Assembly (NCBI GenBank): GCA_938003875.1
Contig: CALKWO010000084.1
Coordinates: 4,128 to 68,127 of the forward strand
From: an uncultured bacterium
Lineage (GTDB): Bacteria > Planctomycetota > Uabimicrobiia > Uabimicrobiales > JABWCH01
Reading direction: 5' to 3'
DNA: 64,000 bases
Below, in pieces: positions 9,668 to 43,626 of the stretch. The notes beneath the pieces are model-generated. The model was not told the origin of the DNA. It saw nothing but the letters and a program-made list of their open reading frames with translations, and did not search any database. Within the stretch, counting starts at the first letter, position 1, and each line of letters begins with the position of its first letter. A program made the position numbers and the translations under genes.

Positions 9668-10465
9668 TTATCGCATATCTCCGAATTTTTTTGTCAGGGC
9701 ATCCTGTCTGGATAGGACTTCCTTATAGTAGTCTCGCATTTTTAATTTTGAAGCGGCTGCTTCGTCAATAAGAAAAGTCGTGTTAGGGTGCATTTGAAGG
9801 ATGGATGCTGGCCATAGAGCACTGAGGGGCGATTCCACTGCATTGGCGATAGCAGATGCTTTATGCTCTCCAAATGCCATCAAAAGAATACGTCTGGCTT
9901 CTGTGATGGTACCGATTCCCATCGTGATTGCCAGATGAGGCTGAAATTCTCCTTCTTGGAAAAATCGCCTGTTGTCCTGAAATGTCTGGTTCGTCAGTGT
10001 TTTGATTCGCGTTCTCGACCCCAAGCTGGAAGTTGGTTCATTGAAGCCTATATGACCATTGGCACCAATTCCCAATATTTGTAAGTCTATGCCACCAGCA
10101 TCTCGAATCATCTTTTCATACTGAGGCCCTACATCCATAGGATTCTCTGCCATACCATCAGGTACATGGGTATTGTTCATATCAATGTCTATATGCTTGA
10201 ATAGATTCTCGTTCATAAAATAGCGATAGCTTTGGTGATGCGAAGGAGGCAGGCCAATGTATTCATCCAGATTGAAAGTGATGACTTTTTGAAAAGAAAT
10301 CGTCCCTTTTTTATAGCGTAGGATTAACTCTTGATAGAGTGCTAGAGGTGTGCTGCCTGTTGCAAGGCCAAGAACAGCATGGGGTTTCTTTTTCAGTAGG
10401 GTACAGCAAATATCCCCCCCGCGTTCAGATACCTCTTGCGAAGAATTGACAATAATCACTTCCAT
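9668..10465 (-). CDS. nagB: Glucosamine-6-phosphate deaminase
   Basis: GLATGSTPLALY, FNLDEYIGL and GIGANGHIGFNEP motifs. Start moved to MEVIIVNSS (ATG 10465) because GGGAG lies upstream; the ORF track extends to 10525. Confidence 0.9.
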   Translation of the reverse strand: MEVIIVNSSQEVSERGGDICCTLLKKKPHAVLGLATGSTPLALYQELILRYKKGTISFQKVITFNLDEYIGLPPSHHQSYRYFMNENLFKHIDIDMNNTHVPDGMAENPMDVGPQYEKMIRDAGGIDLQILGIGANGHIGFNEPTSSLGSRTRIKTLTNQTFQDNRRFFQEGEFQPHLAITMGIGTITEARRILLMAFGEHKASAIANAVESPLSALWPASILQMHPNTTFLIDEAAASKLKMRDYYKEVLSRQDALTKKFGDMR

Positions 10466-17036: not shown

Positions 17037-17085
17037 AAAAAAATACAGATAGATACAGATAATCTTTATCTATATCTATCTGTGG
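17037..17085 (-). terminator. Rho-independent terminator downstream of the LamG gene pair
   Basis: Minus strand: stem acagatagatatagat / atctgtatctatctgt followed by a T7 run. Lies 13 nt past the stop at 17098. Confidence 0.7.
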
Positions 17086-17097
17086 TTTAATAAATTA

Positions 17098-17844
17098 TTA
17101 AATATGCACATATCGTAAAAAGGCCAATATAAAAATTGCTATTGCAAGACTATAAAATGTTCCTGTTTCTGGTATCGAAGAATAGATCCCATTTATCTGG
17201 GACAGGGAAAGAACATCCGTAGTAAAGAAAACTTCATCTACCATGCCATAAAGAAGGGTATCATTGCTATAAGTATAGCTGTTGCCTATTCTAAGCTCTT
17301 GCCCTGCGCCAGTGCTATGCCTTTCTTCCATGGAGCTGGAAATAGCAAGCCTCGAACCTACCAGAACACCATCAATATAAAGGTACATTGTATCTCCATC
17401 AAATGTCTGCGCAACATGATGCCAGACACCTGTGGAAATGGAATGAGAAAGAGAAGTACTTCCACCACAAACATAAGAATATAGCCTTCCGTTGCCATGG
17501 TATGTTAATCCATAGGCTAGATTTGACTGTGCGACCAGACCTGCATCGCATGCTGTTGCAGCAATGGACGGATCTATATAAACCCATGCTCCTAAAGAAA
17601 AGCTTGTAAAATTGGCATTCAAAGAAGAAGAAACTAGGGAAAGATAGCTATTCTTTTGGAAATTAGCGGCATTGTTCACAAGTCCCGATGCAATAGAGAC
17701 TGATCCCAATTGTGCTGACAAATGGTTTCCATTTCCACTGGTATCCTGAAAATTGCTGTCAAAGCTCCATTGTCCAAGCATTGCTGCATGAAGCCCTACA
17801 GCGCATAGTAGATATAAAAATAAAATATCTATTGTTCTTGCCAT
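17098..17844 (-). CDS. Secreted LamG-like (concanavalin-A-like lectin) protein with a variant PEP-CTERM-type tail
   Basis: Signal peptide MARTIDILFLYLLCAVGLHAA (ATG 17844, AAAGGA RBS). LamG_3-like FDGDTMYLYIDGVLVG. C-terminal IPETGTFYSLAIAIFILAFLRYVHI. Confidence 0.7.
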   Translation of the reverse strand: MARTIDILFLYLLCAVGLHAAMLGQWSFDSNFQDTSGNGNHLSAQLGSVSIASGLVNNAANFQKNSYLSLVSSSLNANFTSFSLGAWVYIDPSIAATACDAGLVAQSNLAYGLTYHGNGRLYSYVCGGSTSLSHSISTGVWHHVAQTFDGDTMYLYIDGVLVGSRLAISSSMEERHSTGAGQELRIGNSYTYSNDTLLYGMVDEVFFTTDVLSLSQINGIYSSIPETGTFYSLAIAIFILAFLRYVHI

Positions 17845-17863
17845 AAAAAAAATTCCTTTCTCT

Positions 17864-19399
17864 TTATTTTTGGCGAATGCCATTTCTCTGCCAGAAATAA
17901 AGCACTATAATAAAACCCAGGAGTATAGCAGTGGCTGGTTCAGGAATCGCAGTTCCTATTCCACTTCCTAGCTTGATATAGTACTGGCCTTCATAGATCC
18001 AGCTATCGCCTATGGCTCTGTTTCCATCATCTCCAGGGAGCAGACCGCCGTAATATTTCCAGGGAGTTCCACCAACCAAGATGTCTATAGGATTCAGTCC
18101 TGCTTTTCCATTAGAATATAGTGTTGTCAGTGCATTTAGTTCTTCTGTGCTATAATCAAAATTCCAGACATTGTTGATCGTACTCGCTATGGTTTCGTAA
18201 GTTTCTACACTCACCTGATACAAGGATGCTATCTCGTTTGCATCCAAAGCTCTGTTCCATATAGCTGTATCATCCATAGCCCCCTGGAGAGTTTTGTCTG
18301 CTGTGGCCCATCCAAAGCTTATATAGCTTGTGTTTAGGAAGCTCATAGGTGCCTGTGCCTGGGATTGCAAGATACCATTTTTATATAATTTTGTAGTTGT
18401 CCCATCGAAAGTCGCAGTGATAAGAGACCATTCGTTAAGATTGAAAGAAGTAGCCAGATTGGCGATTTCCCCTGGCACAATATCATGCTGGATATAGGTA
18501 GGATCAATGAACAATCTCAAAGCATCACCACCAGGATTTTGTAACAGCATAAGCCCCTGCCTGTTTCCAGCACCCTGGATTTCAGGTTTGACCCAACAAG
18601 AAAGAGTATAGTTGTTCAAATTCAAAGAAGACGTATTGATCCCAATATAATCGTTGACTCCATCCAGATCTAAAGCATTGCCAAATTTTCCTGCAACTGT
18701 AGCATTGTATCCTGGGACAGGCTCATAACCGCTACCAAAATTAGCTACACCACTAGAATTATGATGGACAGCCGAGGTATAGCTCTCTCCATTGTAAATG
18801 TTTTTTCTGACATTTCCTGATCCATCTGTGATAGCTACATTTTTCAGATAAGCTGTTTTGGTTGAGGTATAGTCAACTTCACAGGCAATATCATAATACC
18901 CTATTGTCCTTCCTACATGACTTTCAGGCAAAGCAATTTTTCTGTGATACCATTGGTTTACAGCATAACTGGATAAATTACTAGCAGGGTGAGCACCTAC
19001 ACCATTCTGATCTTTTGTGGCACTACCATCATTCATGCGAGTATCTCGTAGTGTACCTCCATCCGTCAGAGTATAGTCAAAAGCAATCCTGTCGTCGTTG
19101 GATGTCCACATCACATCGTATTCAAGATAGCTCCCAGAAGTAATGGTATAGTCTGTTACACTGGTTAAATCCTGATATCCATAAGCATTACCACCAAAAT
19201 AGGTCATATTAAAAGACGCTTTTAGCCCTGTACCATCATACAAAATTCCTTGCCTTGAACCAGCAGAGTCAGAAAAATTTGGGCCGCTGATTTCATCGAA
19301 TTTCCAGAGTCCTATAGCAGAATTGTAGTCATCTGCAAAGGAAACAGAAGAAAGGACAATAAAAAAAATTAAAAAACTTATTTTTTTGTTTTTTAGCAT
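17864..19399 (-). CDS. Secreted LamG-domain protein with canonical PEP-CTERM sorting signal
   Basis: Signal peptide. LamG_3 signature (GKFGNALDLDGVNDYIGI…TATFDGTTTKLYKNG…MDDTAIWNRALDANEIASLY). C-terminal IPEPATAILLGFIIVLYFWQRNGIRQK. Confidence 0.8.
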   Translation of the reverse strand: MLKNKKISFLIFFIVLSSVSFADDYNSAIGLWKFDEISGPNFSDSAGSRQGILYDGTGLKASFNMTYFGGNAYGYQDLTSVTDYTITSGSYLEYDVMWTSNDDRIAFDYTLTDGGTLRDTRMNDGSATKDQNGVGAHPASNLSSYAVNQWYHRKIALPESHVGRTIGYYDIACEVDYTSTKTAYLKNVAITDGSGNVRKNIYNGESYTSAVHHNSSGVANFGSGYEPVPGYNATVAGKFGNALDLDGVNDYIGINTSSLNLNNYTLSCWVKPEIQGAGNRQGLMLLQNPGGDALRLFIDPTYIQHDIVPGEIANLATSFNLNEWSLITATFDGTTTKLYKNGILQSQAQAPMSFLNTSYISFGWATADKTLQGAMDDTAIWNRALDANEIASLYQVSVETYETIASTINNVWNFDYSTEELNALTTLYSNGKAGLNPIDILVGGTPWKYYGGLLPGDDGNRAIGDSWIYEGQYYIKLGSGIGTAIPEPATAILLGFIIVLYFWQRNGIRQK

Positions 19400-19468: not shown

Positions 19469-20092
19469 CTATTTATGTTCTAATTTTTGAAGTATCTTAA
19501 AGGCTATATCAGGATATTTTTCCTTTAAGCAGTCAGGGCATATTCCATGGCTGAATTCTGCTTTAGAATGGCTGCTTATATATTCGTCTACTTGTTGCCA
19601 GTAATTTTGATCATTACGAATTTTTTTACAAAAAGAGCAGATAGGTATTATACCTTGTAGCGTTTTAATATGAGCAGAGGCCTCTTCTAGTTCTCGGATT
19701 TTAGCTGTTAGTTTTGCTTGAAGTCCTAATGTATATATACCAACAGAAACGCGTGCTTGAAGTTCTTCCCTGTGATAGGGCTTTCCAATGTAATCATTGG
19801 CCCCGACAGCCAATCCTGCGACAATGTCTTCTTTGCTGTCTCTTGTAGTCAAAATAATGATATAAGGGGGGTCATTGGTTTCCAGAGAACGGATTTTACG
19901 GCACACTTCAATTCCATCCATTTGGGGCATAATCCAGTCTAAAATTGCCAGTTGAGGGTGATCGGGCTTTTGCATAATTTCCCATGCATCTAGCCCATTG
20001 CATACATCAATTACATCGTAGCCTTGTTTTTGGAGTATATTTTTGAGCATAAAGCGCGATGTAAAGTCATCTTCGGCTATCAAAATATGCAT
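19469..20092 (-). CDS. Response regulator: REC domain + coiled coil + C-terminal 4-Cys module
   Basis: MHILIAEDD…DVIDV…LAILDWIMPQMDG…KP is a REC domain. Tail is CSFCKKIRNDQNYWQQVDEYISSHSKAEFSHGICPDC. Start at ATG 20092 with AGGAG 8 nt upstream. Confidence 0.85.
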   Translation of the reverse strand: MHILIAEDDFTSRFMLKNILQKQGYDVIDVCNGLDAWEIMQKPDHPQLAILDWIMPQMDGIEVCRKIRSLETNDPPYIIILTTRDSKEDIVAGLAVGANDYIGKPYHREELQARVSVGIYTLGLQAKLTAKIRELEEASAHIKTLQGIIPICSFCKKIRNDQNYWQQVDEYISSHSKAEFSHGICPDCLKEKYPDIAFKILQKLEHK

Positions 20093-20188
20093 TTTAAAAC
20101 TCCTAAGCACTTGAAGATAAATCCTTTTTCCATTATTATATAAAATTGTTAAAAAATCAATAGAATTTTATTCCAATTCCAGGGCAAC

Positions 20189-21694
20189 CTATCCCCATCT
20201 ACTTGCTTTATACTGGGCTTTTTTTCCTTCCAATACGAGAGATATAAAATTGGCAGGAATTTCTGAGCTGGAAAGAATGTGCTTGCAGACTCTTTCTAAA
20301 TCAGGCCCAACAGCAGGGTTAATGGACTGGATTTTATCGCTTAAAACAGATGGAGAATAACCAAAGATTAAAACCGATGGATCTTCATAGCGAGGATTCT
20401 TTAAGAGTTTAAGCAAATTGAGAAGCCTGGAAAGAGAAGATTCCTGGGACTGCAATAGGCTATGAATCTCACCTTTTAGCTCCTTAGCGATACCATGGCG
20501 AACAATAGAAAGTGCCTTCTGGCTTAGAGCAGGAGAGAAGATGTTAAGGCTTGTTGCAAAAGAAGAGAATGCAACCTTTTCTCCTGGCTCAATGTATGTA
20601 CGAATCAGAGTTAAAAGCTTATTAGCAGTAGAAGACGTTTCCTGAGTATTTTTTAATTTCTCCAATTTTTGCAACAGCTCAGGCAGAGTGTTCAATCGCA
20701 ATATTTCTTTACAGATTTTAGCATCTACTTCGCTTGTCAAAAGCAAGCGGGAAAGCTTTTCCTTTATATTGACCTCTCCATAAGTTCCTAAAAATTGATT
20801 CAGGATCGCAATCAGTCTGTCTGGCTTACTCTGATATAATTTTTGTATATTCTTAAGATCAGAAATGATTTTCAGAGAGGGATATTTTTTTAATATTGTA
20901 GTACTTTTTAAAGTATATTTATCCAGCAAAGATGTCAGCTCTTCGCAATTTTTCATGGAAAGAATCTGCTTGCGAAAATTTTCACTTTGCTCCATGAGCC
21001 TGTTTTCTGTTTCCTGATGCAGATAATCCCATATTTTCTTATTGATTTTTTTCCCTGAAGTAAGCAAAGACAAACGATCCAGAGTGTGGCAAAAAGAGCG
21101 ATAGCCCTGGTTGATGATGTTGATTAAAATGCTTTCTTCTGTTAAAAGCTTAGTCCTTACAATCAAGGCATTCTTGAGCTGGTTTATGGCCAGGCGATTT
21201 TGCCCTGTTATGTCTTTTCTGGCCAAATAAGAATTGAGGATCTTCAATAGATCTCCAGCTTTTATTTTTTCTAATTCTTTTTCTTTCAAGGAAGTAGGCC
21301 ATTCTATTACAGAAGGTGTACTGTGCAAAGAAACAAGGGTCTGCGTTCTTACTGCTTCTAACTCATAGTCCTCTAAAGGCAAGGCAGTAGACAAGATAGT
21401 TTGTGCTTTTTTTTGGGAGAGTTTCATGCTCCATCTTTGGACTATGCTAAGCCTGGGCTTGGAGGAAAACAATGTATTTTCTCCCTTTTCTTCCAACACC
21501 TGATGCAATTCATGAGAAAGAGAATCTTTCTTTCGACTTGCCATGATAGTTTCATCTTCTTGCACTTTTTTCTTTATAGGAGAGCTGGCAACAAGCGTTT
21601 CGTCTTCTTCTATTTTGGGGGGCTTTCCCTTGGGGCTGCTCCCAACAATCGTATCGTCTTCCTTTTTCTGCTTAAACCATTTCAATGGTACCAT
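20189..21694 (-). CDS. Hypothetical protein, mostly helical, with a triple acidic N-terminal motif
   Basis: Long ORF with codon usage like its neighbours. N-terminus repeats EDDTIVGSSPK / EDETLVASSPIKK / EDETIMASRKK. No family recognised. Confidence 0.6.
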   Translation of the reverse strand: MVPLKWFKQKKEDDTIVGSSPKGKPPKIEEDETLVASSPIKKKVQEDETIMASRKKDSLSHELHQVLEEKGENTLFSSKPRLSIVQRWSMKLSQKKAQTILSTALPLEDYELEAVRTQTLVSLHSTPSVIEWPTSLKEKELEKIKAGDLLKILNSYLARKDITGQNRLAINQLKNALIVRTKLLTEESILINIINQGYRSFCHTLDRLSLLTSGKKINKKIWDYLHQETENRLMEQSENFRKQILSMKNCEELTSLLDKYTLKSTTILKKYPSLKIISDLKNIQKLYQSKPDRLIAILNQFLGTYGEVNIKEKLSRLLLTSEVDAKICKEILRLNTLPELLQKLEKLKNTQETSSTANKLLTLIRTYIEPGEKVAFSSFATSLNIFSPALSQKALSIVRHGIAKELKGEIHSLLQSQESSLSRLLNLLKLLKNPRYEDPSVLIFGYSPSVLSDKIQSINPAVGPDLERVCKHILSSSEIPANFISLVLEGKKAQYKASRWG

Positions 21695-21756: not shown

Positions 21757-22254
21757 TTATTTATACTGCGAAGCTTTGGGCCCCAGGACTTTCCATGCTT
21801 CATTCATGTACTCTGTAAGTGCTTTAGCCTGGGTCTCTGTATAGAGGTTTTCTCTGTTTCCGACTCCAGCAACCGCTACAATTTTATTGCCATCAAAAAC
21901 AGGAATATTCATGTGCCTTTTTACATCTACATGCCCTGGAGGATAGCCCTTTTTGGTTGGTTTGGAAAGAGCTTTGTAATCATTTGTGATAACAGGCTTT
22001 CTTTCTCTTACTGCATCACCCCAAAGTCCTGTGTCTTCCAGGATATAGACAATCGGTTTTACAATCAGTTGGCAGGTTGCCATAGCAGATTTAGACCATC
22101 CGATCATAGTCAGGACATCTTCATCCTCGTTCATCACTGCAAAATATGACAGCTTACTCTCTGTTATTTTACAGGCATCTTCGAGTATTGTATCCAAAAT
22201 TTCCTGTATTGGTAAATTTTGCTTTTTTTTCAAATTTTCTAATAAAGGATTCAT
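21757..22254 (-). CDS. Stand-alone GAF-domain protein
   Basis: 165 aa with …[21 protein letters not shown]…[19 protein letters not shown]…[20 protein letters not shown]…VAVAGVGN…, a GAF_2-like pattern. ATGA overlap with the upstream gene. Confidence 0.7.
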
Positions 22255-23225
22255 GTATGTTGCTCTCCTATTTTCTTTTTTAGTTCGTCTAGCTTTTCAT
22301 CTGTTATAAAAATATTTTTTTCTATTCGGTTCGTAAATTTATTCAGAGTCACAAAATAATTCTTGATAACATCCGAAGAATTTTTCACTTCTTTATATTT
22401 TTCTGTACTCTCTTTTGCTGAATTTTTAATTTCTATAGAGGAAGTAGCAATGCTCTGGATTTTTTCTTTCTGAGCTTGTGATATTTTTTGCATCTTCTCC
22501 AGGTCAGAAGAAAGCCTGCAAGACTCTTCGGCTATAGAAGAAAAAATTTGCAGGGATTTGCTAAGATAGTCTGAGGATTCCTGTATTTCTTTAATCCCGT
22601 TGCTGATGTATTCCTGAGCACTCTTTGCCTCTTTATTCGCTATCTGTGAAAGAGACTTAATTTCTCTTGCAACTACACCAAATCCAGCCCCTGCATTCCC
22701 TGCTCTTGCTGCCTCGATAGAGGCATTCAAAGAAAGCATATTGGTCTGCTCTGCTACATCATTGATGACTCTTACAAAATTTTTAAAGAACTGGACTCTT
22801 TCTCTTAGATTTTTCATTATCTTAGAAATGTGTTCTACTGCTTCCATTCCATTTTGAGAAAAATGAGAAAGATGACGCGCTCTTTGGTTAGATTCTTCTA
22901 TACTATGAAAAACTTCCTGGGAGATTCCCTGCATCTCATCTGTAATCTCCGTCATCAACGTTGTTTTTGCCATATTATCATCCAGAACATGGCTTATATT
23001 TTCATTGCAATGAAGAAGACGGATGATGAAATCATCAATATCAGAGGCGATTTTTTTATAATACGACATATCGGCTCTGATTTTTTTCAAAACAACAGCC
23101 TGTTCTTCTAGGGAAGCGATCATCCACGTATTGTCAGAGAGTCTTTCTTCTTGACAATTCTTCTTTTTGACTAGATTAGAAAAAAAATGTGATAATTTTT
23201 TATAAATTCTTTCTAATATTATCAT
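22251..23225 (-). CDS. Soluble methyl-accepting-chemotaxis-protein signalling-domain protein (no TM, no sensor domain recognised)
   Basis: Highly conserved MCP tip [35 protein letters not shown] flanked by heptad-rich helices. TAATG overlap with the upstream ORF. Confidence 0.85.
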
Positions 23226-23518
23226 TAAGCAGGTTTATCCTTTTTAAAAATGCTTTTCAGAAACTCTAAAAAAGCATGGAGTTTTTCCAACAATTCTATA
23301 TCATATCCTTTAGCAACAACATCCTTGATTTCTACTTTTTTAGCTATGTTGGCTTTTTTTTCTTCTTCTGTTTCTTCCTGAAACTGAGGGAATTTTGTCT
23401 GGATGTTGAATTTATCGGTTTTTTTGAATTTATGTAGTGGAGATGCTACCTTGCAGCGCAGCCTTTGTAAAAATTCCTCTACATTTTCAGATATATTGTC
23501 TTTATGATTTTCTTCCAT
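23225..23518 (-). CDS. Small charged hypothetical protein (97 aa)
   Basis: Start placed at MEENHKD (ATG 23518), which forms a TAATG overlap with the TPR gene stop. The ORF track's longer form would overlap the TPR gene by 58 nt. No family recognised. Confidence 0.5.
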
Positions 23519-25149
23519 TATTTTCCATCCTTGTTTTCTGATAACGGCTGAGTTTTTTGCCATAGTTCTTTCCATTTTTTTTCCAGTTTTTCATAGTGTT
23601 CATCAAAATTTTTTTTCCGTTTAAAATAGAGAAGCGAATAGAATAAAGCAGCTTGTTTATCCTGGTATTCTAAAAGCTCCTTCAAAAGGCTTTCTATTGT
23701 TTCCGAAGGGGCAATACCATCCTGGAAGATCGCTTCATAAACAAGTGTTTCAAGATGAGGAACTTGTTGCTTTATAAAAATATCTTTTGCCTGTTGGTTG
23801 AATACTATCGCTTCTTTTGTTTTTCCTGAGGAAAAAAGATCCATTGCACAGCATAGCTTCATATAGCTTTGTAAATATTCAGGCACGACCAGCTCTATTT
23901 GTTGTGCAATTCCTTCTGTTTTACCATCCAGAAGCGATTTCATGATTTCCGATTCTCTGGAGGTACCCATTTCTTGAGATTTTTCTATATAAAAGCGGGA
24001 TTGGGAAGTATTCTCCAAAAGGAAATAGAAAATCCCTAATGCAAGGCTGGATGAAGGAAAATCTGGCCAGTTTTCCAGGGATTTCAACCATAGATTCACA
24101 GCTTCAACAGGATTTTTCCTCTGCATTTCACACCAACCCTGGCAAACCATCGTTTCAGCAAGATAGCTTTTTTGCGATTTATCATAATTTTCTTTTGCAT
24201 CCTGGTATTTATAGTCTGCCATAGCCATTCGGGCTTGATGTGCGTAAGCTTGATGCAAAGGTGGATAAAGAACAAGAGCGATTTTGGCTCTCTCTCTTTG
24301 CTCTTCTGGACTTCCCAGCATAGCATAAGAAGAAAAATATTCTTTTGACAAAGATATCTTGTCTGTTAAAGAAAGCATTTGTGCAAGTATGTCCGTGACT
24401 TTTAGGTTATGGGTACTCAGCAGCTTTTTTGCTGTATTTAAAAAAGAAGCTTCTTCTTTTCCTAGTGCTTGCTGTATTTCTTTTCTTTCGATTCCCAGAT
24501 CTTGCTGGAATTGCCATACCATAAGCAGGGATTCGCTATTTCCTTCTTGCAAAGAACCCAACAATGCTTTTTTTATAGGATTGAGGGATGTCTGATTTTT
24601 TTTGGCAAAGCGAATGGTGTTCCTGATGATGCTTTCCGCTTCCTCGCCTTTTTTTTCTTTTAGAGAAACTATCGTTTTGTCGATATTTTCTCTATATTGC
24701 ATCAATCTTTCAATTTGTTGAACAAAATTCTGGCAATGAGCAAAATAAATTTTTAGCATCTCTTCTGACCATGCTTCTTTTTGACCTATTTCCAGGAGCC
24801 TTTTTACTTCTTCTGATTCCCCTTGAGAAATCAATTGATCCATTCTCGTAAGATAGATCGCCATTCGATATCGGATTTCCAGGAAACTGGTATTCTTGTG
24901 TTCTGCAATGTCCAGGGCTTTTTTATATGCTATTCTGGCTTCTTTATAGTTTCTATTCGCAAAAAGGCTTTCTCCTAAAAGAACACTTTCTTGGAACTGG
25001 GGCTTTAAAACAGAACCAGAAAGTATAAAAGGGGAAACCGATGCAAAAGAAATAAAAATGGAAAATAGAGAAACGAAAAGGACTTTAGGCCAATTTGTAT
25101 TTTTTTTTTGACTTTCGCCATTAGAAAAAGAAGTTACTTCTTGTTGCAT
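23518..25149 (-). CDS. Membrane-anchored TPR-repeat protein
   Basis: N-terminal TM helix (WPKVLFVSLFSIFISFASV), then multiple TPR-like A/Y/L patterns (…YKEARIAYKKALDI…, …YQDAKENYDKSQKS…, …ALGIFYFLLENTSQSRFYIEKSQEM…). Confidence 0.7.
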   Translation of the reverse strand: MQQEVTSFSNGESQKKNTNWPKVLFVSLFSIFISFASVSPFILSGSVLKPQFQESVLLGESLFANRNYKEARIAYKKALDIAEHKNTSFLEIRYRMAIYLTRMDQLISQGESEEVKRLLEIGQKEAWSEEMLKIYFAHCQNFVQQIERLMQYRENIDKTIVSLKEKKGEEAESIIRNTIRFAKKNQTSLNPIKKALLGSLQEGNSESLLMVWQFQQDLGIERKEIQQALGKEEASFLNTAKKLLSTHNLKVTDILAQMLSLTDKISLSKEYFSSYAMLGSPEEQRERAKIALVLYPPLHQAYAHQARMAMADYKYQDAKENYDKSQKSYLAETMVCQGWCEMQRKNPVEAVNLWLKSLENWPDFPSSSLALGIFYFLLENTSQSRFYIEKSQEMGTSRESEIMKSLLDGKTEGIAQQIELVVPEYLQSYMKLCCAMDLFSSGKTKEAIVFNQQAKDIFIKQQVPHLETLVYEAIFQDGIAPSETIESLLKELLEYQDKQAALFYSLLYFKRKKNFDEHYEKLEKKWKELWQKTQPLSENKDGK

Positions 25150-25161: not shown

Positions 25162-27453
25162 TTAAAATCTCAGGCTAACACCTAAGATAGCTCCAATATT
25201 GAAAATTTCCAGCTTACTATTTTCATAGGCTTGATGAACAAGGTTCGAATCGCCTGAGTGCATCCTGGCTGGTAAAGAAAATTCCAGAGCAGCGTTGAGA
25301 GAAAGATAGCGATTGACCAGATAGCTTGTCCCTAAAGTAATATGATGCTCTGTAATGGCAGCCAGTTGAGGGTTGAGATACTTTTTCGGAACAGGATTGT
25401 TTCCGTAATTGTAGCCTGTTCTCCATATCCAATGAGGACTGCTTTGCCATACAAGGCCCAGTGCAATAACATATTGGTCTTTCCAGCCTATCTTAAAACT
25501 AGGATTCACATCTGCCGAACCGACCAGAGCATTCAAGTCAGCGTTAGATCCACTTTTCAGCTTTGCTTTCAGTTCAAACTGCGTTTCAGAGTAGTTGATC
25601 CATTGAAAGTCCATTGCAAAAAGAAGGCTATCCGTGAAAAGCCAGCTAAACCCAACACCTAGCCTCTGGGGAATATCGAAATCCAGCTCTACATCGTATT
25701 TTCCAGAGAAACCATATTGTCCCTTATTGGGTAAAACGATTTTAGCGATATTCGCTACCCCAATTTTTTCAAAATGGCGGTTAAAATCCAACTTTGCTGT
25801 TCCTTTAGCATCCATCATCCAACCAGGAGGGCTGTACATGGCTCCGATTTGGAAACGATTGTGAATTTTCCAGAGAAAACCAATTCTGCCTCCTATGCCA
25901 AACGCCAGAAGATAGTTTGTGTCTATTTCACCTCTGACATTGTTTTCTCCGACTATGCCAATGAGATAGTCCCCAAAGGTAATGTCTGTGTCTTCAATGG
26001 GTTTGCCTTTTAAAATATTGGATTCCTGGGAAACCAGACCATCCAGTTCCAGTGTCATAAAATGAAAATTCAACGAAACACCAATGCTGAAGTGGTCATT
26101 GAAACGATAGGCGATACCAGGGACAAGAGATGCCAGGATTAAATCCGTACGATTTTCAATTCCTTCTGGAAAAAGTTCAGGATCTACGACTTCCATAGAA
26201 TACCTGGCCCCTGCCTGGGGAAAAACGCCTAGTCCCCATTTCCATCCTGAAGGACGGTCTGCATTTCTAGCCTGGTGGTCTGCCCATCGATGGCAAACAG
26301 GAATGTCTTTATGACCTGCTTCACGATAGGCACTCAGATGCCTTGCTGTCTGGATATCTTTTCCCTGAGATACAAGAGATACTTCTAATTTTTTAGAGCT
26401 TTCCAGTCTATAGTCGTAATATACACTGATACTTTCCCATTCTCCGCCATGCGCAGAATCTGTTAAAGATAAAGGGATTATCAATCTGTCTTGTTCCAGC
26501 TTGTATTCTTTTGGATCAGAAAAAATAAGCCTGGAAGCCTGTCTGGCTAGATTAGCAACAGAAGAAAGCTCTTGCCAAAAATATTTTTCCTCTACTTTAT
26601 AGCCTGATTTTACCCGAATGTTTCTGATCTGTAAAGGAGCATTTTCTGTAAGACAGAAAAAGTGTACATTTGTGGGAATGCTTGCTTTATCCCAGACTAA
26701 AGCAAGATAACCATCCTGCCAGCTTTCCAGCTTTCTTTTTAAAATCAGTACCTCCTGTTTGTCTTCGGCTGACAGAGCGACCTGGGCCTGCTCATATTCA
26801 GGAGAAATTTTCCATTGAAATGAAACCTGGATGCTCCTCACCCTTGCATTTTGAGGCAAAGAAGGGTGGCTATTGCACGAGAAAAAAGTTTTCTGATCGT
26901 TTTGGGCAGAGGGCATACTGGCATAAACCCGAATCCCCGAAAGAACAGAACCTCTGCCTTGCAATTCCAGAGAAAGGCCAGGTATGTTTTTGGGGAGGTT
27001 ACACTCCAGAACGCCTTGTCCTTTACTAGCGGAATGCTGATTCACAGGAAAAGGCTGACCACCCGAAAAGTATACATACTCTGTCTGTAGTGGCTCTCCT
27101 CCAAAAGCATATACAAAAGGGTCGCTGATGGCTTGCCCTGCCTGCGATGGAAAATCGAAAACAGTGGCGAAGGTTGCTATGGGTACTGGTTCAAAATCAG
27201 AATCAGCGTCGTTACTATCATTGGAGAAAGTAATTGTAGGGAAAAAAAATCCTGTGGAGAATTCTGTTGCCTTACCATGCAAAAAGCCAATTCCAGCAGG
27301 ATTTGTGTTTAAACAGGTTGGATCGCTCGCTATTCCTATGTCTACACCGCCACGCCCTGCTCCTTGTGCGCCCATAAAAGTCGGAAACATACCATTTGTA
27401 GCATAAAGACTAAAGGAAAAACAAAAAAGGAGCAAAAAACAAATACGATACAT
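25162..27453 (-). CDS. Outer-membrane beta-barrel of the FadL/OmpP1/TodX type with a large inserted domain
   Basis: Signal peptide. N-terminal GMFPTFMGAQGAGRGGVDIGIASDPTCLNTNPAGIGFL. Alternating beta-strand pattern with terminal …GAILGVSLRF. About 280 aa of non-barrel sequence at roughly aa 125-405. Confidence 0.65.
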   Translation of the reverse strand: MYRICFLLLFCFSFSLYATNGMFPTFMGAQGAGRGGVDIGIASDPTCLNTNPAGIGFLHGKATEFSTGFFFPTITFSNDSNDADSDFEPVPIATFATVFDFPSQAGQAISDPFVYAFGGEPLQTEYVYFSGGQPFPVNQHSASKGQGVLECNLPKNIPGLSLELQGRGSVLSGIRVYASMPSAQNDQKTFFSCNSHPSLPQNARVRSIQVSFQWKISPEYEQAQVALSAEDKQEVLILKRKLESWQDGYLALVWDKASIPTNVHFFCLTENAPLQIRNIRVKSGYKVEEKYFWQELSSVANLARQASRLIFSDPKEYKLEQDRLIIPLSLTDSAHGGEWESISVYYDYRLESSKKLEVSLVSQGKDIQTARHLSAYREAGHKDIPVCHRWADHQARNADRPSGWKWGLGVFPQAGARYSMEVVDPELFPEGIENRTDLILASLVPGIAYRFNDHFSIGVSLNFHFMTLELDGLVSQESNILKGKPIEDTDITFGDYLIGIVGENNVRGEIDTNYLLAFGIGGRIGFLWKIHNRFQIGAMYSPPGWMMDAKGTAKLDFNRHFEKIGVANIAKIVLPNKGQYGFSGKYDVELDFDIPQRLGVGFSWLFTDSLLFAMDFQWINYSETQFELKAKLKSGSNADLNALVGSADVNPSFKIGWKDQYVIALGLVWQSSPHWIWRTGYNYGNNPVPKKYLNPQLAAITEHHITLGTSYLVNRYLSLNAALEFSLPARMHSGDSNLVHQAYENSKLEIFNIGAILGVSLRF

Positions 27454-27507: not shown

Positions 27508-29379
27508 TTACTGAGCATATTTTTTATACCAGCGATGGAATACCCATAGATTCCACAGTGGATCTCTATAGTCACAGATGCCAGAGAGATGGTTTTGGTA
27601 AAGTTTTTCTATATTTTCATAATCGAAGTAAGGCAGGTTGCCATTTTTGATCACCTCTTCCCTGAAAGATTGGGCGAGTTCAGAGCGCAGCCATTTTTCT
27701 AAAGGAATAGAAAACCCCATTTTGCTTCTATAGAGAATATCATCGGGAAGCAAATCGCTTACCGTTTTTTTCATGATATACTTCCCTTGCATTTTATGAA
27801 TTTTAAACCTTGTAGGAAGCGAAAAGGCATATTCTACAATATGATGATCCAAAATAGGAACCCTGACCTCTAAGGAATGAGCCATGCTTGCTAAATCTAC
27901 TTTTGTAAGTATATCTCCGCTCAGGTACATTTTTATATCAACATAGAAAATTTTCTTTAATGGATCTGAGCATTTTGCCTTGTCATAGTATGATTTAAAG
28001 ACTTCAAAAGAGCGATAGCCCGCAAGTTCTTTCAGCATATCCTGGGAGAGCATTCTTTCTTTAATTTTATCCGTAATCGAAGAAACACTGTTGTAGTAAG
28101 CCTCATCGGGGGTTTTGGCAATATTTTGCAAGGTTGTTTTGGCTCTAAGAAAACGAGGAAGCCAATCTGCCTTGGGATATAAGAGAGACAGAGGGTGTAT
28201 AATCCCCTGTCTGATACAATTCGGCAAATAGCGTCTTACCCTGTTTTCCCACAAGTCCAGATAGTAACGCCTGTAGCCTCCAAAATTTTCATCACCGCCA
28301 TCTCCTGATAGCACAACAGTCACAACACGAGCAGCTTCTCTGCAAACAATAAAAGTAGGAAGCGAAGAACTGTCGGCAAAAGGTTCATCGAAATATTTTA
28401 AAAGAACATCCATTTCCTCTGGCCCAGGAGCATTAACGATGGTTTCATGATGCTCTGTCTGGTATTGGTTCGCTACCATTCTGGCGTAGTCTGTCTCATT
28501 ATAGGCTTTGCTTTCAAACCCAATGCTAAAGGTTTTGACTGGCTGCCTTGTTGCTTTAGCCATCAAAGCAACTACCGTAGAAGAATCAATTCCTCCAGAA
28601 AGAAAAGCACCTAAGGGAACTTCACTTTCCAGATGGCTTTCCACACATTCGCCAAGAAGTCGTTTTATTTCCTGGCTTGCTTCGGGGAAAGAGTTGTTTT
28701 CATAGGAAAAATCCAAATCCCAATAAGCCCGTGTCACTATATTCTCAGGACTGGCAATCAATATATGGCCAGGCAAAAGTTTGTAGACATTCTTGAAAAT
28801 TGTAGCTGGTTCTGGGACATAGCGATAGGTCAGATAGTCTGAAATCGCTTTGGGGCAGATTTCACGCTGGATACCTGCAACCAGCAATGCTTTCATCTCA
28901 GAAGCAAACAAAATACCCTGTTCTGTAACAGCATAAAGCAAGGGCTTAATCCCAACACGGTCCCTGGCAAGTATCAGCTTTTTTCGGCTGGAATCCCATA
29001 AAGCAAAAGCAAACATCCCTCGCAGTCGTTCCACAAAAGATTCGCCTATTTCTTCATACAAATGCAAAATGGCTTCCGTGTCGCAATGGGTTTTAAAGAT
29101 ATGCCCTTTAGCGATCAGGCCTTCTCTGATAGAGTGGTGGTTGTATATCTCACCATTGAACACCACTGCAATCCGTCCGTCTTCATTGAACATAGGCTGG
29201 CCACCGCCAGCTTTATCTATGATGGAAAGTCTTCTATGGCCAAGTCCCAGATTTTTTTCAGAGTAAAAACCCTCTGCATTGGGCCCTCGATGAGCTATGG
29301 TATCTGTCATGGCCTGCAAAGTTTTTCTATCCACATCTTGCAAGCTACGATAGTTATAAATTCCACATATACCACACAT
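27508..29379 (-). CDS. asnB: Asparagine synthase (glutamine-hydrolysing) family amidotransferase
   Basis: MCGICGIY Ntn-Cys start. SGGIDSS PP-loop. 623 aa. Confidence 0.88.
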   Translation of the reverse strand: MCGICGIYNYRSLQDVDRKTLQAMTDTIAHRGPNAEGFYSEKNLGLGHRRLSIIDKAGGGQPMFNEDGRIAVVFNGEIYNHHSIREGLIAKGHIFKTHCDTEAILHLYEEIGESFVERLRGMFAFALWDSSRKKLILARDRVGIKPLLYAVTEQGILFASEMKALLVAGIQREICPKAISDYLTYRYVPEPATIFKNVYKLLPGHILIASPENIVTRAYWDLDFSYENNSFPEASQEIKRLLGECVESHLESEVPLGAFLSGGIDSSTVVALMAKATRQPVKTFSIGFESKAYNETDYARMVANQYQTEHHETIVNAPGPEEMDVLLKYFDEPFADSSSLPTFIVCREAARVVTVVLSGDGGDENFGGYRRYYLDLWENRVRRYLPNCIRQGIIHPLSLLYPKADWLPRFLRAKTTLQNIAKTPDEAYYNSVSSITDKIKERMLSQDMLKELAGYRSFEVFKSYYDKAKCSDPLKKIFYVDIKMYLSGDILTKVDLASMAHSLEVRVPILDHHIVEYAFSLPTRFKIHKMQGKYIMKKTVSDLLPDDILYRSKMGFSIPLEKWLRSELAQSFREEVIKNGNLPYFDYENIEKLYQNHLSGICDYRDPLWNLWVFHRWYKKYAQ

Positions 29380-29507: not shown

Positions 29508-30308
29508 TCAACAATTCTCAAGAGAATACACGCTTTCTCTTAAGAACTCTTGTAACTCCTTTAAATCTTGATATTTCTGTATTGTTTCAGGAAGTATCAA
29601 ATGTCCTGTCGTCACCTTCACCATGCTATTTCTTTTTCGTAAAAATTCTGCTGGCAGCCTCACTGTCCTGAGCAAAGGGTGAATTTTTCCAGCCAGGTGG
29701 AAAAGGCGACTGTTCTGTCCATGAAAATACAAAGGAAGTACAGGAACCTGGGCTTTTTGGATCAAACGTATGGGAGAGAGCGGCCAGGGACGGTCGCTAA
29801 CGCCTTTTTGCCCTCGATAGTATGTAGACACTTCTCCTGCAGGGAAAAGTCCAACAGATCCCCCCTTAGCAAGATGCTCCAGACATTGAGTGGTTCCGCC
29901 CATGCCCTGGTGTTTTTTATCATCGAAGGGATTCACAAAAATAAAAAAGTCTTTTAGGGGTTCTAGTTGTTGGAGTAAAAAGTTGGCAGTAACTTTGTAA
30001 TCTGGCCTGATTTTGCGGATCAGCAGGATGCTTGTAAGTCCATCCAAAAAACCGAAAGGATGATTGGAGATAGTGATAAAAGGACCTTGTTGTAATATAT
30101 CACAAAGTTTACTTTGCTCTTTCAGGAAAATCCGAATATTCATTTGCTGCAAAATCTTTTCTACAAGTTCTAGCCCCTGAGATGGATAAATCGTATCATA
30201 AATTTTATTCAATTCCTTTATCTTGAGCAACTTCATGATAAGATTGACCCAAAAATCCCCCAGAGATATAGCCTTTTGAATCGCCTGCCTTGGTACAATT
30301 TCCTTCAT
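29508..30308 (-). CDS. Lysophospholipid/glycerolipid acyltransferase family protein (PlsC-like)
   Basis: HX4D motif NHPFGFLDG and FPAGEVS block. Start set to MKEIVPRQ (ATG 30308) with GGAGAGG upstream; the ORF track's GTG is at 30371. Confidence 0.7.
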   Translation of the reverse strand: MKEIVPRQAIQKAISLGDFWVNLIMKLLKIKELNKIYDTIYPSQGLELVEKILQQMNIRIFLKEQSKLCDILQQGPFITISNHPFGFLDGLTSILLIRKIRPDYKVTANFLLQQLEPLKDFFIFVNPFDDKKHQGMGGTTQCLEHLAKGGSVGLFPAGEVSTYYRGQKGVSDRPWPLSPIRLIQKAQVPVLPLYFHGQNSRLFHLAGKIHPLLRTVRLPAEFLRKRNSMVKVTTGHLILPETIQKYQDLKELQEFLRESVYSLENC

Positions 30309-30413
30309 AATACAGCCTCTCCAAAAATTGTGGTAAAATCGCCCATATCGTTTTGGTTGATTGCTTGACACCAGAAATATTTTAAAGTAGAATACTCGTC
30401 TTTCTGTTTTACT

Positions 30414-30860
30414 ATGATTGGAAATGGATTTATGAATAAAGAAAAAATCAAAAAGATTATATTGATTCTGATAGGGAGCGTTTGCGTTGGACTGGGTTTT
30501 ATCGGTATGTTCCTTCCCCTTTTACCAACGACTCCTTTCTTACTTCTTGCTGCCGTATGCTATGCTAAAAGCTCCCATGCTTTTTACCAATGGCTAATGA
30601 CAAATTCCTGGTGTGGTCAGTATATCAAAAATTATCGTGAAGGTAAAGGCATGATCTTGAAACAAAAAATACTTACTATCCTCTTGTTATGGCTGACCAT
30701 AAGCTACTCATGCTTTTTCATAGTATCCAGACTTATAGTGCAATTTCTTTTATTGACAATAGCCATCCTTGTTACGGCTCATCTTCTATATCTAAAAAAT
30801 ATAAAGCCTGCCCAACACCCCAACGCTAAAATGAATCCAAGGCAAGAGACAAAGATTTAA
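30414..30860 (+). CDS. ybaN: YbaN/DUF454-family inner-membrane protein
   Basis: GFIGMFLPLLPTTPFLLLAAVCYAKSSHAFYQWL…YIKNYREGKG is the family signature. An alternative start is ATG 30432. Confidence 0.8.
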   Translation: MIGNGFMNKEKIKKIILILIGSVCVGLGFIGMFLPLLPTTPFLLLAAVCYAKSSHAFYQWLMTNSWCGQYIKNYREGKGMILKQKILTILLLWLTISYSCFFIVSRLIVQFLLLTIAILVTAHLLYLKNIKPAQHPNAKMNPRQETKI

Positions 30861-30911: not shown

Positions 30912-30950
30912 AAAGAGAACCAAAGATAGAGTCTATCTTTGGTTCTCTTT
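30912..30950. terminator. Perfect 18-bp stem-loop between convergent genes (terminator-like, no clear U tract)
   Basis: aaagagaaccaaagatag-agt-ctatctttggttctcttt, between the ybaN stop (30860) and the histidine-kinase stop (31120). Confidence 0.45.
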
Positions 30951-31119: not shown

Positions 31120-34100
31120 CTATTTCTTTTCGACTTTTTTGTCCAGGGATTCTCTTACCTTTTGTGCCAGATCATGAAGTAAAAATGGTTTTTGAATAAA
31201 ATTAATATCTTTATCCAACAAACAACGTGAAGCAATGGTATTGCTGCTATAGCCAGACATGAATATCTTTTTCATTTCAGGACAAAAAGAGGTTATTTTT
31301 TTTGACAGATCCCATCCATTCATATCAGGCATAACTACATCAGTTATAAGAAGTTGTATCTCTTCATGATGCTCACTAGCAATACGAATGGCCTCCCCTG
31401 GCGTAGAGGCAGGCAGCACACGATATCCTAATCTCTCTAACATTATCTTCACCATATCCAAAATCGCTGGTTCATCTTCCACCAGCAGAAGAGTTTCATT
31501 ACCTTGATTATTTGTAACCATGAAATTTATCTTTGGCGTTGGATCCGCCTTAGCAGAATAGCGTGGGAGGTAGATACTAAAAGTCGCTCCGCATCCAGGT
31601 TCACTGTATACTTTAATGAAGCCATTGTTTTGTTTTACGATTCCATAGACAGTAGCCAGCCCAAGACCCGTGCCTTTGCCAATTTCTTTGGTAGTAAAAA
31701 ATGGCTCAAATAGCCTATCCAAAATTTCTTTGCTCATGCCGCATCCGTTATCAATGACTTCCAGAAATACAAATTCCCCTGGAATAAACCCTGGATGATG
31801 AGTGCAATAGATATTATCGAAAGTAGCAATCCCTGTTTTAATTGTAATTTTTCCTACTCCTATAATAGCATCGCGGGCATTGACACATAAATTGGCCAGT
31901 ATCTGATCAATCTGAGATGGATCCATATTTACCGTCCCTGTTTTTAGCCCTGGTTGCCAGTCGAGATGAATATTCTCTCCAATCAAACGCCTTAGCATTT
32001 TAAGCATCCCCTCTATTGTTTCATTTAAATCAAGAACTTTAGGCATGATAGGTTGTTGGCGTGCAAAGGCTAACAATTGTCGGGTGAGATTAGCGGATCG
32101 CGTGGCTGCCTTGCGGATTTCCTGCATGTCAGTGTAGAATGGCTGTAATGGATACATCTGCTCCATAGCCATATCCACATGCCCAAGGATTACCCCTAGC
32201 ATGTTATTAAAGTCGTGGGCAATTCCGCCTGCCAGGCTACCGATGGATTCCATTTTTTGAGCCTGAAGAAACTGAGCTTCCAAAGAAAGTTTCTTGGTAA
32301 TATCTTCGACTATCTCGATTACTGCCGTAATCTCTCCAGATGAGTTGAGGATAGGAGAAGAAACAATACGATAATTTCGTATTGTTCCTGCCTGAGGTGT
32401 TTGGCTTGTAGCTTCATGTACCTGTTTGTCTTCTAGTGTTTTAATGACAGGGCAATATTCGCACACTTTTTCTCGTGGCGGATTGTTGAATGCATGATAG
32501 CATATAGGATGTTGATCTGGCTCAATTATGGGAAACCACTTATGCATTCGATTGTTTAGTTCTAGAATTTCCATTTTAGGGCTGATAAGACTAATCCCGA
32601 TTTCAATGTTTTCCAGGATACTACGCATCTTGGCTTCACTTTCTTCCAGTGCCTTCTCTGCCTGCTTATGCTTAGTAATATCAATAAAAGTTACAATGAT
32701 TTGCGCTATTTTTCCTTCTTTATCAAAAACAGGATCAGCGTTCACCAAAGTCCAAAAATGCTTGTCTTTTTCTATATGGCGTACACCAATAATAAAATTT
32801 TTCAAGGATTGTTGTTGTGTAAGTACCTGGTTTACAGGATATTCCTCAGCAGGCATATTGCTTCCATCTTCGCAGAAAAAATTCCAGGCTATATTGAGCA
32901 CTGTTTTTCCAATCAATTGCTCTTTTGTTAGCCCAAGCAATCTTTCTGCTGCGGGATTGCATGTCAATATCTCTGTGTTAGAGCTATGAACGATAACACC
33001 TGCCTGTATTTTTTGGACTAATGTTCGATATTTTTCTTCGCTTTCCTTAAGATCGCGTAGTATTAAAAAATTGGCTAACGCATCATGGAGTTTTCTGGTG
33101 ATTTCTTGAAATAGCCGCTTATCTTCTTGTGTCCAAACCTGATAAGATGAATCATAGTGTAATTCAAGCAACCAGGGTTTATCTACTTGAGGATACAAAG
33201 CCGTTGAAATCCAAAAGTAGGGTTTTACATATTGCAATGCCTCACTTAGCGGATAATTGGATTGAGAATCGAATATTTTAATATTGTTTATATCTCTCAT
33301 TGCCTGAAAATATTGGGAGATATTCGTATCCATCTGAATTTCAAACCCTACAGGAAAAGCAGATTCTATTCGAAAACTCTCCATCATCACACGGAATGAA
33401 GCCGCATCAGGATCGCAAGGAGAAAATAACAGCACTCTGTTGCAATCAAATATAGAAAGCATTGTATTCAAAACGCCCTTTAGCATCTGCTCAAGATCAT
33501 TTGTCTCTTGAATAGCCTTGTTGATTTGATCCATACTTTCAAAGAATCGAAGATGAGCTAAACGTTCTTGCTCTGCTTTTTTTCTTTCCGTGATATCCAT
33601 TAGTACAGCGACATTTCCTGTGATTTTTCCATCCAGATCATGCAAGGGCGATGCATAGATACTATACTCGATGGGGGTGCCATCACGCTTTTGGCGTTTA
33701 ACATCTACACCATCCATCGTCTTGCCGCTTCGTATCCAATCACGAAATTTTTTGAATTCTTCCTTTTTATCTTGGGGTACAGAGGGAAGAAAATGTCCAA
33801 TTGCTTCTTGCGCATTCCAACCAAGCAATTTTTCAGCCGCAGGATTCCATACGGTATGTACATATCCTTCTAAATCCAGTCCCATGATGGCCGTTGGGGC
33901 TGCTTCGATAATTGCTCGAAGCATGTCATTGGACTTCTTCAGATCATCTTCTACTCGTTTTCTTTCATAGCGGATACGTAAAGCAATGATCCCAAATGCC
34001 AGATCGCTTGCCAATTCTTCCATGAGTTTAATTTCATCCATTGTGATTGAATTGGACTCTGAAGAATAGATCAGCAGAACTCCGAAAACTTTTCCATTTT

Positions 34101-34590
34101 CATCCTTAAGGGGCAGAGCGATACCAGCGCGATATCCACGTTGCAATGCGCTTTGGCACCATGGGGACATTTGTGGATCTGTTGTGAAATCCTGAACATA
34201 GAGTATTTGTCCACTTCGAATAGCTTTTCCCGCAGGCCCTTTCCCGTATTCTGAATTTTCTGACCAGGTAAGTTTTATATTTGCGATGTATCCATTATCA
34301 AACCCAGACCAGGCTACAGGCCTTATTGTTTTATCAGCATCGTTTTCGGCGTAGCCTACCCATGCCAGGCGATAGCCTGCATCATCGCATATAATACGAC
34401 AAATTTCGTTAAGCAATGTCTGCTCATCCGTCGCTCTCAAAAGAGTCTGGTTGCAGTTACTGAGTGCATGCAATTTGCGATTCACGTTGTGGAGTTGTTC
34501 TACCAGTTTAAGATCGCTAAGTTCTTTTTCTAATTGCAGATTTGCTTTTTGTGATTCATGACTTTTTGATATAATTATTGGATCGTCCAT
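31120..34590 (-). CDS. Hybrid sensor histidine kinase (coiled coil, GAF, multiple PAS, second GAF-like region, HisKA, HATPase_c, C-terminal REC)
   Basis: GAF (…[21 protein letters not shown]…). PAS blocks with …[11 protein letters not shown]…, …[16 protein letters not shown]… and …[11 protein letters not shown]… junctions. H-box [13 protein letters not shown] boxes ([24 protein letters not shown]). REC (LLLVEDEP…[10 protein letters not shown]…KP). Confidence 0.9.
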
Positions 34591-38382: not shown

Positions 38383-38471
38383 AAATTTCTTTAATTAAAG
38401 ATAATGTACAAAAAACAAACTCTGGCACTGTTCATGCCAGAGTTTACAGTTAATTACAACAATATAGCATC

Positions 38472-43603: not shown

Positions 43604-43626
43604 ATTTTCTCCTCCACAAGAAATTT

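Follow-up and report, generated by a model that had tools for sequence, protein, structure and literature searches.

A stand-alone GAF gene coupled to a sensor-less chemoreceptor gene in an uncultured planctomycete: a candidate split chemoreceptor

Many cytoplasmic chemoreceptors have no sensor domain, and their signal input is mostly unexplained. Tm14 of Thermotoga maritima (PDB 3G67/3G6B) is a class IVb receptor of 213 residues, a soluble hairpin with a canonical tip and no transmembrane (TM) segment, HAMP or ligand-binding domain. In other methyl-accepting chemotaxis proteins (MCPs) a GAF fold is fused to the signalling domain as its cytoplasmic input, as in the receptor represented by PDB 3OOV and in class IVa receptors with PAS or GAF input domains. 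Sensing can also reside in a separate polypeptide. NreA of Staphylococcus is a stand-alone, ligand-binding GAF co-sensor that modulates the kinase NreB, encoded beside NreA, and in MBP–Tar and other periplasmic binding protein systems, a ligand-binding protein docks on a receptor that does not itself bind the ligand. Here, we describe a stand-alone GAF gene coupled to the gene of a sensor-less MCP in 64,000 nucleotides (nt) of contig CALKWO010000084.1 (positions 4,128–68,127 of the forward strand; assembly GCA_938003875.1) from an uncultured member of the Planctomycetota. This stretch is referred to below as the window.

The MCP-domain protein of the window resembles Tm14 in being a soluble hairpin with a canonical tip and neither TM segment, HAMP nor ligand-binding domain, and is longer, with ≈21 heptads per arm. 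Unlike Tm14, it is coupled to a stand-alone GAF gene, has no che gene nearby and displays no methylation consensus. The use of a GAF fold as cytoplasmic input would be shared with the fused GAF-MCPs, but in the window the roles of sensor and transducer would fall to two polypeptides, and the GAF protein comes from a separate, far better conserved subfamily that has no relative by sequence in the PDB. The single-domain GAF protein encoded beside a separate signalling gene may be compared to NreA, except that the putative partner is an MCP hairpin rather than a PAS histidine kinase. A looser analogy might be drawn with the MBP–Tar type of adaptor, which is periplasmic and acts on the periplasmic domain of its receptor, whereas the GAF and MCP proteins of the window are both cytoplasmic. 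Soluble sensor-less MCPs (class IVb) and fused GAF-MCPs are already known; what is new is that the two parts are split and their genes translationally coupled, with a GAF protein of this family. We found no description of a stand-alone GAF–MCP pair in the searchable literature. Our preferred reading, to which we assign a probability of roughly one half, is a split chemoreceptor, in which the GAF protein is a trans-acting sensor and the sensor-less MCP is the transducer, with output via CheW and CheA encoded elsewhere. The four genes from which this reading starts are the following.

23518..25149, minus strand: gene for a tetratricopeptide-repeat (TPR) protein of 543 amino acids (aa), from Pfam and six-frame open reading frames (ORFs)
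23225..23518, minus strand: gene for a charged, cytoplasmic 97-aa protein with no family match
22251..23225, minus strand: gene for the soluble MCP-domain protein, 324 aa, from Pfam and AlphaFold2
21757..22254, minus strand: gene for the stand-alone GAF_2 protein, 165 aa, from Pfam and AlphaFold2

The four genes are translationally coupled. The TAA stop codon of the TPR gene (23520–23518) shares bases with the ATG of the 97-aa gene (23518–23516), and the TAA of the latter (23227–23225) with the ATG of the MCP gene (23225–23223), forming TAATG in both cases, while the TGA of the MCP gene (22253–22251) and the ATG of the GAF gene (22254–22252) form ATGA. A gene for a FadL-like outer-membrane protein (OMP) ends at 25162, leaving a gap of 12 nt to the start of the TPR gene at 25149. 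Both the chain and the short gap had been proposed in an earlier, sequence-only reading of this DNA, and the ORFs and junctions bear them out. The overlaps also survived a check of the start codons. The N-terminus of the small protein in relatives reads METMEEN or MEEN, which backs the start of the 97-aa gene; the MCP ortholog P0258 can be aligned from residue 1, and the GAF homologs can be aligned from the N-terminus, backing the other two starts. Shine–Dalgarno-like sequences (AAGGA/AGGAG) could be read off the sequence upstream of all three internal starts. Four-base overlaps are frequent in operons and unremarkable alone.

The third gene had been described from the sequence as encoding a soluble MCP hairpin without TM segment, HAMP or ligand-binding domain, and Pfam, hydropathy and AlphaFold2 agree on this. 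The MCPsignal domain (PF00015) scored 95.1 bits against a cut-off of 34.6 over residues 117–284, and sequence searches of the PDB matched TM1143, Tm14 and Tsr with E around 1e-15. No HAMP or ligand-binding domain was found with Pfam, and there is no hydrophobic segment (19-residue Kyte–Doolittle maximum, 0.76). AlphaFold2 predicted a helix from residue 2 to 22 followed by an uninterrupted helix from 29 to 323 (predicted local distance difference test (pLDDT), 86), with the hairpin tip at N177 and arms of about 148 and 146 residues, or ≈21 heptads each. When this model was compared with Foldseek, MCP entries led the match list, the best solved structure being the 309-residue cytoplasmic domain of TM1143 from T. 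maritima, matched over 305 alignment columns. The total of about 42 heptads falls in the 40H–44H range, an assignment made from arm lengths alone, without class-specific hidden Markov models (HMMs). Class IVb receptors have no TM segment and <108 residues before the signalling (MA) domain (PMC8466855); the MCP of the window has no TM segment, and its helical bundle starts at residue 29. It is a class-IVb-type cytoplasmic chemoreceptor with a complete hairpin of 40–44H size, a canonical tip and no input domain.

The tip was tested against the motif …QTN.L.LNA.IEAARAG..G.GF..VA…, and T161, L164, L166, N167, A168, E171–G176, G179, G181, F182, V185 and A186 were invariant in a comparison with 32 other MCPs. 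The tip is also the best-conserved stretch between the MCP of the window and its ortholog P0258. This canonical, well-preserved tip argues that the interactions with CheW and CheA and the trimer-of-dimers packing have been retained, with the partners encoded elsewhere in the genome.

The GAF protein matched GAF_2 (PF13185) with 90.9 bits (cut-off 28.6), and its AlphaFold2 model has the standard GAF fold (pLDDT 88). Foldseek aligned the model with the GAF domains of PDE2A, PDE6, DosS/DosT, PtsP and Lcd1, with query-normalised TM-scores of 0.6–0.8 and identities of 12–20%, so that the resemblance to cyclic-nucleotide-, haem- and PtsP-type GAF domains is one of fold only. PDB 3OOV, the GAF domain of an MCP, was among the structural neighbours. 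The family comprises 282 members within E ≤ 1e-5. Its stand-alone proteins are roughly 150–190 aa long, are about 51–78% identical across phyla, and occur in Acidobacteriota, Chloroflexota, Bacteroidota, Spirochaetota, Myxococcota, Fibrobacterota and others. The family alignment has 33 invariant positions, including C61, H108 and H114, and a loop of the form K98-P99-x-K101-K102-G-Y-P-x-G-H. The same subfamily is found inside PAS-rich histidine kinases, GGDEF proteins (diguanylate cyclases) and HD-GYP proteins, and in a protein of methanogens and Desulfovibrionales in which a receiver (REC) domain, the GAF domain and PocR are combined. Being embedded in such fused signalling proteins, the domain is a sensory input and not an enzyme. 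The possibility that the protein arose as a duplicate of the GAF domain in the neighbouring hybrid kinase was rejected, as the two share no similarity.

Small cysteine-rich ORFs accompany the GAF family in many genomes. A tiny ORF (34–75 aa) with the motif K-G-x-C-x-[DE]-C-x5-[DN]-C-P-R-M-[KR]-G-x3-C directly adjoins the stand-alone GAF gene at 16 loci from at least six phyla (L009, L017, L022–L026, L028, L030, L033–L036 and L042–L044), on the same strand and within about 230 nt (e.g., 8495–8686 in L033). At L043, the motif lies upstream in the same reading frame as the GAF domain, with an uncertain start codon. The mini-protein is absent from the clade of the window. It may be a metal- or Fe-S-binding partner of the GAF family. 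A second, conserved cysteine-rich ORF of ≈71 aa (MSSCNNKILC…), with no Pfam family, overlaps the end of the GAF gene in metagenome-assembled genomes (MAGs) of Bacteroidales/Marinilabiliaceae and Chloroherpeton (L022, 8476–8691; L024, 8488–8706; L025, 8476–8691; L026, 7030–7245; L030, 574–831); in each of the four Bacteroidales loci, 17 nt are shared. An Omnitrophota MAG (L048) has its GAF gene flanked by a gene for the F protein of a type II secretion system (T2SS) on one side and a pseudopilin gene on the other.

Support for the split-chemoreceptor reading comes from the adjacency of the two genes across genomes. A profile search of the GTDB species representatives with the GAF family yielded 46 loci with 600 kb of flanking DNA. 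A sensitive MCP HMM detected six MCP genes in these loci; all six adjoin the GAF gene, and the rest of the flanks contains none. Five are confirmed by Pfam (in Spirochaetales, Fibrobacteria, Polyangiales, Polyangiaceae and Ca. Moduliflexus), while the sixth candidate (L023) is cut by the contig end and unconfirmed. Taking about 12 genes per locus and two adjacent positions, the chance of six out of six for randomly placed genes would be of the order of 1e-5, which is a rough estimate. An exhaustive HMMER search with the MCP of the window returned a single ortholog, P0258 (334 aa, 44% identity, 237 bits), with a gap-free alignment between about residues 45 and 320; a word-index search had not returned it. 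The P0258 gene follows speD–speE and overlaps a GAF gene by 23 nt, with a Ser/Thr kinase gene next (L015), and this pair stands without OMP, TPR or small protein. All the paired MCPs of the nearest clade lack a ligand-binding domain: two are soluble (324 and 334 aa), and the other two (386 and 410 aa) have only an N-terminal hydrophobic segment. As these receptors have no input domain of their own, a split chemoreceptor is the simplest reading.

In a neighbor-joining tree of the GAF proteins, the MCP-adjacent members (the window, L015, Spirochaetales and Fibrobacteria) bracket three MCP-less, Brocadiia-like members. This bracketing suggests that the MCP–GAF pairing is ancestral and was lost twice. 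The G+C content at third codon positions of the MCP gene is 0.31, the same as in the neighbouring genes. A recent horizontal insertion of the MCP gene was considered and found no compositional support, and the GAF tree speaks rather for an ancestral pair from which MCP genes were later lost.

In a split chemoreceptor of this kind, the invariant pocket and loop of the GAF protein would hold a small molecule or a cofactor, and the protein, acting in trans, would dock on the MCP dimer at the end remote from the tip. Docking may then bias the hairpin control of a CheW/CheA-type kinase, presumably encoded elsewhere in the genome. The cross-phylum pairing would make the GAF protein a concrete candidate for the trans-acting cytoplasmic sensor subunit of sensor-less MCPs. 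It also draws attention to an uncharacterised GAF family with 33 invariant residues, no solved sequence relative and variable small partners, whose ligand is worth finding.

Several observations weigh against this reading. Three close relatives (L016/L006, L065 and L063) keep the GAF gene without the MCP gene, as do about 26 of the about 32 stand-alone members overall, and stand-alone examples from Acidobacteria and JGI are likewise without an MCP neighbour. At tip positions 177 and 180, N and A replace the E and R of most MCPs (GNAGAGF vs GEAGRGF). There is no strict match to the methylation consensus ([ASTG][ASTG]xx[EQ][EQ]xx[ASTG][ASTG]) in the MCP of the window or in P0258; since this consensus derives from model organisms, the missing match weakens the case for methylation and does not exclude it. 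The MCP also carries no C-terminal pentapeptide, and all seven MCP–GAF pairs are without a che gene nearby. A Pfam scan of the non-nested ORFs of at least 120 aa in the window found no Che-family domain (most ORFs were scanned directly, and five Rnf genes and a DUF454 gene were covered through precomputed Pfam hits), which upholds the earlier statement that cheA, cheW, cheR and cheB are missing from the 64 kb. It is routine for MCP genes to lie far away from che clusters, so this absence is uninformative on the wiring. Together, the lack of a methylation consensus, of a pentapeptide and of a nearby che gene leave room for a non-classical output.

The chain is probably part of a long minus-strand operon extending from about 30.4 to 17.05 kb. 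The other features of this operon and its boundaries are the following.

30912..30950, minus strand: terminator-like hairpin with an 18-base-pair (bp) stem, the upstream boundary, after the hybrid histidine kinase gene at 31120–34590
29508..30371, minus strand: acyltransferase gene, with which the probable unit opens; product similar to the N-terminal portion of OlsF/GlsA
27508..29379, minus strand: AsnB-family glutamine-dependent amidotransferase gene (NCBIfam)
25162..27453, minus strand: FadL/Toluene_X-like OMP gene, 763 aa, with a signal peptide (Pfam)
20189..21694, minus strand: gene for a 501-aa protein with no homolog outside the species
19469..20110, minus strand: REC-4Cys protein gene, receiver domain followed by a C-terminal CxxC...CxxC; the start given by gene callers is 20092
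17098..19399, minus strand: two genes for LamG (Laminin_G_3) proteins with PEP-CTERM-like C-terminal tails, recognised by eye, with no HMM confirmation
17045..17083, minus strand: terminator-like hairpin, 18-bp stem and T run, the probable end of the transcription unit

The order of the 11 genes between the two hairpins is acyltransferase, AsnB, OMP, TPR, 97-aa, MCP, GAF, 501-aa, REC-4Cys, LamG and LamG, with no strong terminator inside. The block recurs on contig DAIOHE010000008.1 of the MAG GCA_036744895.1, and Logan assemblies from several sequencing runs also contain it.

Comparison with relatives shows that the chain splits. In the species-representative collection, the genome closest to that of the window carries the label ‘Candidatus Brocadiia bacterium MAG_51’ (Planctomycetota). 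In this genome (L016, with the same proteins as L006), the AsnB gene, again upstream of the FadL-like gene, is followed by genes for a 770-aa FadL-like OMP, a TPR protein, a 100-aa protein and the GAF protein, with no MCP; the acyltransferase is not kept at its position. Colinearity between the DNA of the window and that of L006 stops at the MCP start codon (23222) and restarts 13 nt into the GAF gene (22241), so the MCP gene behaves as a clean indel. A second relative (L065) has the TPR, small and GAF genes with overlaps and no MCP, and in the closest (L063), whose GAF protein is 78% and whose small protein is 87% identical, a spacer of 104 nt stands where the MCP gene would be. A more distant, single 1.47-kb contig (L062), obtained in a metagenome scan with the small protein, has the TPR gene, the small gene and an ATGA junction to the next gene, of which it contains 11 nt; it is too short to judge the presence of an MCP gene. 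The TPR protein is kept in all four, and the 97-aa protein shares 81–87% identity with its counterparts in three relatives and 48% with that of a fourth. In the relatives examined, no 501-aa or REC-4Cys gene was found behind GAF. In MAG_51, a 491-aa HEAT/PBS-lyase-repeat gene lies ≈560 nt downstream of GAF (L016, 9050–10525). In Myxococcus, HEAT-repeat proteins resembling PBS lyases act as partners in the Che7 system. The MAG_51 gene was considered as a counterpart of the 501-aa gene and rejected, since the sequences are unrelated.

Conservation of the gene order, which the sequence-only reading had proposed as its check, is therefore divided: TPR–small–GAF is kept in three relatives, and the four-gene chain with the MCP gene in none. 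The chain consists of two evolutionarily separable units joined via one shared GAF gene. The first unit comprises the amidotransferase, the FadL-like OMP, the membrane-anchored, probably periplasmic TPR protein, the 97-aa protein and GAF, with the link to GAF conserved, while the second, the MCP–GAF pair, is the better supported of the two. The retention of GAF without MCP in three relatives implies an MCP-independent role for the GAF protein.

This separability raises the question of whether MCP and GAF are mere neighbours that act independently, the GAF protein working with the 97-aa, TPR and OMP proteins or with cysteine-rich mini-proteins and the MCP being an orphan. Such independence would account for GAF being kept without MCP in most genomes and for the conservation of TPR–small–GAF in four lineages, and the four-cysteine mini-protein, fused in frame at L043, is a commoner neighbour of GAF (16 loci) than is the MCP. 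It does not readily explain why every MCP gene in the 600 kb of flanks, from five phyla, directly adjoins GAF, why the start and stop codons of the two genes overlap in two species with orthologous MCPs, or why the paired MCPs of the nearest clade are all without a sensor domain. We consider mere neighbourhood unlikely, at somewhat more than a one-in-five level of belief.

More doubtful is a second alternative, in which MCP and GAF feed a CheA-dependent but non-flagellar pathway, such as a type IV pilus (Tfp) system or an alternative cellular function (ACF), acting on pilus/T2SS-like machinery or on envelope/PEP-CTERM functions. The 40H class is linked to Tfp and ACF systems, and a hairpin of ≈42 heptads is compatible in size with that class, as far as arm lengths can tell. 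A pilus/T2SS-like cluster lies at 37318–46599 of the window, and the Omnitrophota GAF gene is found between T2SS-F and pseudopilin genes. Against this, the window has no CheA-, ChpA- or PilG-like gene, the heptad class derives from arm lengths only, and the link to the pilus cluster consists of proximity (≈14 kb) only.

Least of all do we favour the wiring suggested by the sequence-only reading, a self-contained new envelope-to-cytoplasm pathway formed by the OMP, TPR, 97-aa, MCP, GAF, 501-aa and REC-4Cys proteins, in which an MCP without CheA and CheW signals to REC-4Cys: the single strand, the overlaps and short gaps without a strong internal terminator between the two 18-bp hairpins, the absence of che genes and of a methylation consensus, and a TPR membrane anchor that could in principle link periplasm and cytoplasm speak for it, but the gene set is not syntenic, the MCP is missing in three TPR–small–GAF relatives, the 501-aa protein is an ORFan and is absent, like REC-4Cys, behind GAF in relatives, the MCP ortholog stands without OMP, TPR, small protein or REC, nothing in the block is able to phosphorylate a receiver domain, and the canonical tip argues for classical partners. 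It is similarly improbable that the MCP hairpin works without CheA and CheW and, together with GAF, serves as a kinase-independent cytoplasmic scaffold or switch through which an internal signal reaches the envelope operon, with its OMP, TPR and 97-aa proteins and PEP-CTERM cargo, e.g., via REC-4Cys; if true, the MCP signalling domain would here have a non-chemotactic role. Although counted as parts of the module in the sequence-only reading, the genes for the 501-aa and REC-4Cys proteins are lineage-specific operon passengers.

The remaining proteins of the operon gave few matches. The amidotransferase scored 800.2 bits with the XrtA/PEP-CTERM model TIGR03108, below the cut-off of 816.9, and passed the generic asparagine synthase model TIGR01536 (508.7 vs 267.1 bits). 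The OMP matched Toluene_X (PF03349) with 88 bits over residues 404–727 only (model positions 106–383), and its scores for the FadL and BamG equivalog models were far under the cut-offs. It has ≈300 extra residues (roughly 100–400) between a hatch-like N-terminus and the barrel match, an insertion that is kept in the 770-aa protein of MAG_51. The TPR protein has a single N-terminal membrane anchor (residues 25–43) and one clear TPR repeat; the bulk of it is probably periplasmic. XrtA/PEP-CTERM loci combine a TIGR03108 amidotransferase with an outer-membrane protein and a TPR lipoprotein; in the operon of the window, OMP and TPR genes likewise come after the amidotransferase gene, and PEP-CTERM-like LamG proteins are encoded at the end. 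Unlike in those loci, the amidotransferase misses the TIGR03108 cut-off (800 vs 817), and the OMP is FadL-like; no match to exosortase or to the OMP and TPR models of the PEP-CTERM system was found in the NCBIfam scan. NCBIfam had no family for the TPR, GAF and 501-aa proteins and only a far sub-threshold score for the 97-aa protein. Sequence searches of the PDB gave nothing significant for the GAF, 97-aa and TPR proteins or for the four-cysteine tail, nor did the PADLOC defence models, and a search of 5.8 billion proteins with the 501-aa protein returned only itself. The C-terminal four-cysteine segment of REC-4Cys (…ICSFCKKIRNDQNYWQQVDEYISSHSKAEFSHGICPDC…) had no Pfam, NCBIfam or PDB match; the same tail recurs on PAS/REC proteins of spirochaetes and deltaproteobacteria.

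Both hairpins are perfect 18-bp stems, and the minus-strand gene set that they enclose measures 13.9 kb. The upstream hairpin (30912–30950) is also located just 3′ of a plus-strand gene for a DUF454 membrane protein (30414–30860) and could terminate transcription in both directions. This DUF454 gene is ≈7 kb from GAF and MCP, on the opposite strand. At a Spirochaetales locus (L018), a DUF454 gene (9725–10180) directly follows the MCP gene, and the resemblance to the window may be coincidence. The T2SS/type IV pilus-like cluster at 37318–46599 (minus strand) comprises a PilT-like ATPase, a secretin, GspF and a GspE with an MshEN domain, together with two unusually long N-methyl pseudopilins (375–377 aa). 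At one end of the window (157–4728, minus strand), a 1523-aa ORF without any Pfam family is followed by an SPFH/Band 7 gene. Toward the other end (58508–59212, plus strand), a fusion of HTH_17 and PTS_EIIA_2 is encoded beside a HEAT/TPR protein.

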